Positions 16,638 to 17,047 of a stretch of DNA of 64,000 bases are shown in pieces; positions within the stretch are counted from its first letter, which is position 1, and every line of letters begins with the position of its first letter. The position numbers and the translations under genes are program-made. The notes under the pieces are model-generated. The model was not told the DNA's origin, searched no databases, and was given only the letters and a program-made list of their open reading frames with translations. Origin of the DNA: Eledone cirrhosa. Taxonomy: Eukaryota. The stretch spans positions 51,460,001-51,524,000 of the forward strand of contig OZ024751.1 of assembly GCA_964016885.1 (NCBI GenBank). Reading direction: 5' to 3'.

Positions 16638-16640
<3 letters not shown>

Positions 16641-17047
16641 CGTTTCTGAATTTGTTTAGCAAGATTCTTTATCTGAAATCGTGTGTTGAAACCGATATTG
16701 TTATACTTTGGGAGGGTCATGTTGCCAAACAAAATGGCGTAGGATAGAAGAAAGGAAAGGCACAGAAACGAGGGTCATGTTGACAAACAAAATGGCGTAG
16801 GATAGAAGAAAGGAAAGGCACAGAAACGAAGAAAGAAATCCCCAGTCACTGAAGAGGTCACAGAGTGTGTGACGAAAGAACTATGACTATATATATATAA
16901 ACAACTATCTGGTTGTGGAACCAACCAACCAACCAGAAATTTATAAATTTGTAAATTTATAAATATATATTAAATTAAATTGAAGTGAAAGCAACTGGTG
17001 CGTGTATTTCTTATTGGCAACATGACCCTCCCAAAGTATAACAATAT
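16638..17047. mobile_element. HHR-bearing Penelope-like pLTR remnant with an inverted 5' segment, inserted in (TA)n
   Basis: 34-bp inverted repeat 16695-16728 / 17014-17047; internal ~58-bp direct duplication; HHR at 16844; ATG-initiated MTLPKYNN at both outward-facing ends. Confidence 0.75.
16844..16888 (+). ncRNA. Minimal type I hammerhead ribozyme
   Basis: AGTCA-CTGAAGA-gGTCACa gagtg tGTGAC-GAAA-GAAC-TA|TGACT: perfect 5-bp helix I, 6-bp helix II. Confidence 0.85.

Follow-up and report, generated by a model that had tools for sequence, protein, structure and literature searches.

The window analysed here, a 64,000-nt stretch of animal-type DNA, contains two short hammerhead elements, A and B (Table 1), which both end in ATG-ACC-CTC-CCM-AAR-TAT-AAC-AAT, at 17022 and 31939, respectively. 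From which gene do these codons come, is their ATG the start of that gene, and what kind of enzyme copied the two elements? The original prediction regarded A and B as pLTR and tail remnants of two related autonomous PLEs and the ATG as the start of their ORF. The first part of this proposal is supported by the anatomy of the elements and by their terminus, which matches the 3' ends found in an RT + GIY-YIG subfamily, and we consider a PLE origin of A and B well supported and highly probable. The copies themselves are not autonomous, and no autonomous parent was seen.

The window is rich in microsatellites and includes RTE-type LINE ORFs (32358-35468) as well as a sodium/calcium exchanger exon (Pfam Na_Ca_ex, 26641-27471, minus strand), which lies between A and B on the opposite strand. 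The RTE-type LINE at 32280-35471, which starts approximately 400 nt to the right of B, has an open frame of 1,063 codons, with an AP endonuclease, an RT and a PHD-like finger; further copies of this type are found at 50667-51905, 52794-56030 and 11362-11997. Directly to the left of A (16501-16592) lies a separate dispersed repeat of ~90-140 nt (80-92% identity), also ending in (TA)n, which recurs at no fewer than five places (21298, 30808, 35659, 50245 and 56253).

Table 1. Features of elements A and B in the window
Feature	Position	Strand	Basis or remark
Element A, whole	16638..17047	+	between two (TA)n tracts; end junctions inspected
Inverted 5' arm of A, 91 nt	16638..16728	-	blastn 34/34
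27 open codons MTLPKYNNIGFNTRFQIKNLAKQIQKR on the inverted arm of A	16640..16720	-	similarity to PLE proteins confined to LPKYxN(I)
Two tandem 58-nt copies, 98% identical, across the inverted/forward arm junction of A	16712..16827	+	repeat family D6
AAAATGGCGTAG of A, common to B; second copy at 16731 in the duplicate	16789..16800	+	sequence match
Minimal type I hammerhead of A	16844..16888	+	layout compared with PMC4209133
Terminal codons N-M-T-L-P-K-Y-N-N of A, joined to (AT)n	17019..17047	+	sequence read
Element B, whole	31204..31963	+	between two (TA)n tracts
Inverted 5' arm of B, 171 nt	31204..31374	-	100% complementary to 31759-31929, pair I1
AAAATGGCGTAG of B	31656..31667	+	sequence match
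Hammerhead of B	31705..31742	+	CUGACGA core with one extra base, 6-bp stem II, GAAA
34-nt tail of B	31930..31963	+	contains N-M-T-L-P-K-Y-N-N at 31936-31962, joined to (AT)n

The anatomy of A and B is that of a textbook PLE, and in this respect the finding is an ordinary one, concerning a known kind of element. The two ends of each element are unequal. In A, 16695-16728 is the exact reverse complement of 17014-17047 (34 nt at 100%), and the remainder of the arm (16638-16694) is an extension, or tail, that reaches 57 nt past the forward end and is missing from it; in B, it is the forward end that runs 34 nt past the arm. Counted from the ATG, the end points fall at about -10, +26 and +83, with +26 used by both elements. 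Published PLEs have an inverted 5' copy and a tail of 30-40 nt (PMC8557442); the 34-nt tail of B falls within this range, whereas that of A, with 57 nt, exceeds it.

Each element contains a single hammerhead core. In A, it consists of a 5-bp stem I, a CUGAAGA core with one extra base, a 6-bp stem II opening with a G-C pair, GAAA and a 2-bp stem III, with the cut predicted after 16883. Read directly in the sequence, two pairs of stem II in B are changed on both sides relative to A, and stem I of B is reduced to 2 bp, probably through decay. Both hammerheads have the 2-bp stem III and the extra base before G10.1, and are of the minimal type I with features as in PMC4209133, where minimal hammerheads carry an extra base between positions 9 and 10.1 and a G10.1-C11.1 pair. 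No Rfam match was obtained in the window at the gathering score. Monomer folds of the two hammerheads were no better than those of shuffled sequences (z about -1), as expected given that the hammerheads are minimal, and the lowest-energy form of the homodimer fold lacked the extended stem III.

Among known systems, A and B most readily compare with canonical C-terminal EN+ PLEs of the Penelope/Poseidon type (PAc and Pen2a_Av), with which they share a minimal pLTR hammerhead, an inverted 5' arm, a tail at one end, an AT-rich target and, probably, an element end inside the 5' part of the ORF. The pLTR of Pen2a_Av from Adineta contains the first 12 ORF codons, or 22 with the tail (PMC3846280), and reverse transcription of PAc from Anolis, which uses AT-rich targets, begins 111-118 nt into the ORF (PMC11167929). 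Given this published layout, an element ending in ORF codons is expected rather than surprising. A and B differ from these PLEs in lacking an RT or endonuclease and in the 57-nt tail of A; furthermore, in PAc the ORF starts inside the hammerhead, whereas in A and B the ATG lies 144 and 204 nt after it, respectively (measured from GAAA), in line with the approximately 135-195 nt estimated originally. With non-LTR retrozymes, for which monomers are known to occur, A and B have in common that they are short, non-coding and equipped with a type I hammerhead; however, they are single units with an inverted arm and a few retained ORF codons, not tandem arrays, and the two or more tandem units by which such retrozymes are recognized are not present in either. 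Animal non-LTR retrozymes are, in turn, thought to derive from PLE pLTRs (bioRxiv 10.64898/2026.07.22.740005). The Hydra and Naiad clades, as described in PMC8557442, share the insertion preference for (TA)n, and Hydra elements have canonical hammerheads; by contrast, the stem III of Hydra hammerheads is 3-4 bp long and their ORFs start with NYSxKNIP-type sequences, whereas Naiad elements are without canonical hammerheads. When four of the six new Hydra consensus starts and the 30 hammerheads listed in the supplement of that study were compared by eye, A and B resembled neither.

The shared terminus was confirmed. The sequence ATGACCCTCCC is present only at +17022, +31939 and -16720, the last being in the inverted arm of A, and a search for the 24-mer with up to six substitutions allowed returned the same three places. 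A 22/24 match is expected by chance 3e-6 times in the window. As the original prediction stated, the copies at 17022 and 31939 differ only silently, at positions 12 and 15; the probability that two random substitutions are both silent is 0.03-0.07. The codon preceding the ATG (AAC/AAT) specifies the same residue in A and B and adds a third silent difference; the probability for three silent changes is 0.004-0.010, with the codon window having been widened after the data were seen. Within the 24-mer, both other frames of the same strand contain stops, and frame 0 of the opposite strand yields an altered peptide.

Upstream of the terminus, the elements were initially described as barely alignable. 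This holds for the spacer between the hammerhead and the ATG, which aligns no better than expected by chance (43 of 500 shuffles as good), but not for the hammerhead regions, which align above all 500 shuffles, nor for the 12-mer AAAATGGCGTAG, which is common to both elements 60 (A) and 51 nt (B) before the hammerhead cores, with 0.01 such matches expected. This 12-mer may represent an internal promoter element, putatively YY1-like. Similarly, the inverted arm of A does extend the frame to 27 open codons, as claimed; however, the 19 extra codons are no evidence for coding, because 51% of 20,000 shuffles are equally open. Splice-donor-like hexamers, GTGCGT in A (16998-17003) and GTGAGT in B (31897-31902), lie 24 and 42 nt before the ATG. 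An intron preceding the motif was considered and rejected, as inspection by eye revealed no acceptor AG in open frame in B. Part of element A was detected in 20 of the 24 listed rows of public sequencing runs, from 15 studies; 13 listed rows had a share of at least 0.2, and these came from eight studies apart from the possible source. No RNA run with element A was among the matches listed. These rows give only a hint of how far the family of element A has spread.

Reference PLE ORFs came from eukaryotic contigs inside prokaryote genome bins; five of the eight loci of one search proved to be PLEs. Such contigs were found in bins G001-G004 (L022, L024-L027 and L035-L055), with 22 matches in G004, pointing to contamination with host DNA. 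The RT + GIY-YIG subfamily most relevant here, for which we use the working name LPKY-type, is represented by loci L039, L044 and L051 and by proteins P0123-P0242. L039 was chosen because its subfamily carries the motif LLPKYxN, and the six-residue match reported below is thus not a blind test. Of the best 120 relatives of L039, the 74 with at least 780 aa were treated as full-length and used. RVT_1 was recognized in all 25 aligned proteins and a Pfam GIY-YIG match in eight of them, and a two-cysteine GIY-YIG core is present in 68 of the 74. The signature FNxxCxxxxLPxY occurs in 69 of the 74 full-length proteins, with the motif leucine at position 47 or 48 in roughly two thirds of these 69; LPKY itself is found in 25/74. 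The relatives presumably belong to the Penelope/Poseidon clade, which fits with the lack of the linker zinc finger of the Neptune/Nematis type (0/68 proteins).

Two reference 3' ends of LPKY-type elements could be read, both from G004. Among the 26 matches listed, only L044 and L051 match the N-terminus (model positions 1-54 and 2-54; E 1.5e-14 and 5.8e-15), and 400 further genomes contributed no N-terminal ends beyond these two. Both ends lie 3' of an endonuclease ORF and consist of a hammerhead-like core followed by an ATG with A at -3, ~50 codons and the motif, with (TA)n starting straight after LLPIYT in one case and LLPKYTN in the other. The ORF of these relatives starts 33-44 nt after the hammerhead, 46-47 codons upstream of the motif. 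Their hammerheads covary at positions 3 and 8, with G3-C8 in L044 (about 250-290, minus strand) and U3-A8 in L051 (minus strand), compared to C3-G8 in A and B. PMC4209133 mentions the U3-A8 variant; G3-C8 was not seen there.

At the motif column of the LPKY-type profile, LPKYNN scores 12.1 bits, the top value among the 127,960 six-frame hexapeptides of the window, reached by its three copies only, and A and B rank first among the 370 (TA)n junctions of the window. In both elements, (AT)n follows LPKYNN, with the junction in the phase also seen in L044 and L051, and the distances from GAAA to the leucine codon, 150 (A) and 210 nt (B), bracket those in the relatives (182 and 174 nt). LPKYNN matches LPKY(T/S)N at five of six residues, with N in place of T. 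Outside the hexapeptide, no significant match to the subfamily was found. Over its whole length, the 27-mer fails to match the profile (266 and 604 of 2,000 shuffles score as well), and so does MTLPKYNN (3,663 of 20,000 window 8-mers as good). Whereas the relatives have an intact N-terminus of 46-47 codons with FNxxC, neither A nor B has a trace of the first 46 codons in the 160 nt upstream (score 0), even though no part is better conserved than FNxxC, and FNxxCxxxx(L/I) is absent directly before LPxY in both. In frame +1, the tail of A reads STHDFR, compared to the consensus FTLEFR (36-96 of 1,500 shuffles as good, P about 0.02-0.06, in a test chosen after the similarity was seen), which would weakly agree with a decayed ORF. 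Only the six residues of LPKYxN and the terminal position point to a subfamily, and of these only the terminal position is an independent test, resting on two ends from one bin. Homology of the A and B terminus with the LPKY(T/S)N end of the subfamily is nevertheless considered likely. Because LPKYNN is top-scoring and the ends of the relatives are in the same phase, an LPKY-type PLE is the probable mobiliser of A and B.

Taken together, these observations favour, with a probability of roughly 0.55, the reading that A and B are non-coding PLE remnants copied by the RT + GIY-YIG protein of a subfamily that likely targets (TA)n, and that LPKYNN corresponds to the internal LPKY(T/S)N at codons 47-53, where copies end. 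The shared peptide then likely marks a point ~50 codons into the gene, at which such elements normally stop, and not a proven start. By analogy with PAc and published insertion structures, on which the nicking, the internal start and the inverted second copy are modelled, a transcript would continue beyond the pLTR into the beginning of the following ORF copy and be bound by the PLE protein; the endonuclease would nick (TA)n, and reverse transcription would begin internally on this RNA, at fixed sites within the 5' part of the ORF, which would thereby become the end of every insertion. Two neighbouring start sites could account for the unequal ends, with 34 nt in B and 57 nt in A, a second, inverted cDNA would give the 5' arm, and early termination would leave only pLTR-sized pieces. 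The terminal codons may have been kept because they are protein-coding in the parents and also serve as a copying signal. The ATG seen here would not be the usual ORF start, which would lie 46-47 codons further upstream.

Alternatively, the ATG could be the true start in a lineage of the same subfamily whose first ~45 codons are no longer coding and now form 5' UTR, such that the ORF begins M-T-LPKY and A and B are the pLTR and tail of two diverged autonomous families. Such a lineage is possible, albeit somewhat unlikely. Consistent with it, the similarity between A and B, which follows a spacer at chance level, begins sharply at -3 of the ATG, with A at this position in both, as in the starts of L044 and L051; in-frame stops occur 11 (A) and 8 (B) codons upstream, where no coding trace was detected, and nine codons show three silent and no replacement differences. 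Moreover, A and B share M-T before and N-N after LPKY, and neither M-T before LPxY nor N directly after it is found in any of the 74 relatives. These common deviations and the ATG with A at -3 would be better explained by a real start. Yet none of the 120 relatives starts within five residues of the motif, no match to the profile was obtained in frame 0 for the 18 codons that follow LPKYNNI (172-263 of 2,000 shuffles score as well), and the distance between the hammerhead and the motif is similar to that in the unshortened relatives. Furthermore, a copying signal embedded in an ORF may permit changes at third positions only, thereby mimicking coding constraint. Accordingly, the assignment of the ATG as an ORF start is not established: the conserved ATG, its A at -3 and the pattern of silent differences leave room for a shortened ORF, but the motif lies ~47 codons inside the ORF of the relatives. 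In its fullest form, which we regard as unlikely, a PLE lineage in this animal would have turned its first ~45 codons into untranslated sequence, with translation restarting at the copying motif and the start codon coinciding with the site at which reverse transcription starts, while targeting (TA)n without a linker zinc finger.

It is improbable that an unsampled PLE clade genuinely starts its ORF with this peptide and that the peptide resembles LPKY(T/S)N by coincidence. PLE pLTRs often contain the first 12-22 codons (PMC3846280), two of many subfamilies were sampled in depth, and the match comprises five of six residues without flanks; however, the motif, its phase and the (TA)n junction are as in L044 and L051. 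The other subfamily sampled (120 proteins, 63 used for the profile) gave no match to the peptide (623 of 2,000 shuffles as good), and the Hydra-clade starts read in the supplement of PMC8557442 share at most NIG(F/Y) with it. Least probable of all is a purely non-coding terminal signal of 24-27 nt, belonging to a retrozyme-like or other repeat without coding ancestry, with the silent pattern due to chance: although there are only two to three informative sites, the peptide has no database match and the hammerhead array at 1670-7366 has the same insertion anatomy without the motif, the terminus ranks first in matching a conserved PLE protein motif, and does so at the homologous terminal position, and three silent changes are not readily expected by chance.

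The peptide had been expected to provide a handle on the mobilising enzyme. LPKYxN and its terminal position do point to a subfamily, but the 27-aa peptide itself retrieved nothing. Among the longer proteins of a 5.8-billion-protein set, it had no match at E<=10, although a search of this kind is weak evidence. The only match among 1.84 billion representatives (E 5e-4) was a bacterial repeat protein with WLPWYNNIG and was rejected as chance. The peptide had no usable match in the ESM Atlas, none in the PDB and none in Pfam at E<=10. The back-translated motif was absent from viral contigs; its two matches in metagenome contigs were both rejected, as one lies in an unrelated gene but not in its frame and the other in the middle of a low-complexity protein. 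Searches of viral contigs with PLE RT patterns yielded, in turn, none, 19 chance loci, none and 0/28 confirmed. LPKYNN, TLPKY, LPKY and the DNA 11-mer did not occur in the supplement of PMC8557442 as displayed, with its long sequence runs shortened. Within the window, no long ORF follows the peptide, neither A nor B contains a single ORF with a telomerase-like RT and GIY-YIG, and two PLE profiles (best E 0.04, at an unrelated place) and tblastn revealed no convincing PLE coding remnant.

Copies of a large PLE subfamily seem to share a fixed protein motif as their insertion end, LPxY(T)N with (TA)n directly behind it, providing a simple tag that links orphan hammerhead repeats to their mobiliser, as well as a natural site at which to test the internal start of reverse transcription shown for PAc. 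Neither this terminus rule nor a (TA)n-joined PLE subfamily without the linker zinc finger was found in the open-access papers searched. The linker zinc finger, which is present in Neptune/Nematis, has been linked to (TA)n targeting (PMC8557442). Given that both 3' ends that could be read join (TA)n, whereas the finger is absent from all 68 LPKY-type proteins, it is probably not required for such targeting.

Further hammerhead sequences are found elsewhere in the window. The array at 1670-7366, flanked by (TA)n, comprises 16.6 forward copies of a 310-nt unit that are 99-100% identical (2229-7366); in front of them lie 1.8 inverted copies (1670-2228), and the ends of the array differ by 31 nt. 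The hammerhead of the unit is of type I, with a 6-bp stem I, CUGAUGA, a 4-bp stem II and a 2-bp stem III, and the array resembles a non-LTR retrozyme array of very recent origin that bears the inverted-arm and tail signature of PLEs. At the left edge of the window, a hammerhead-like core, CTGATGAAGG...CCGAAAC, is located at 50-73.
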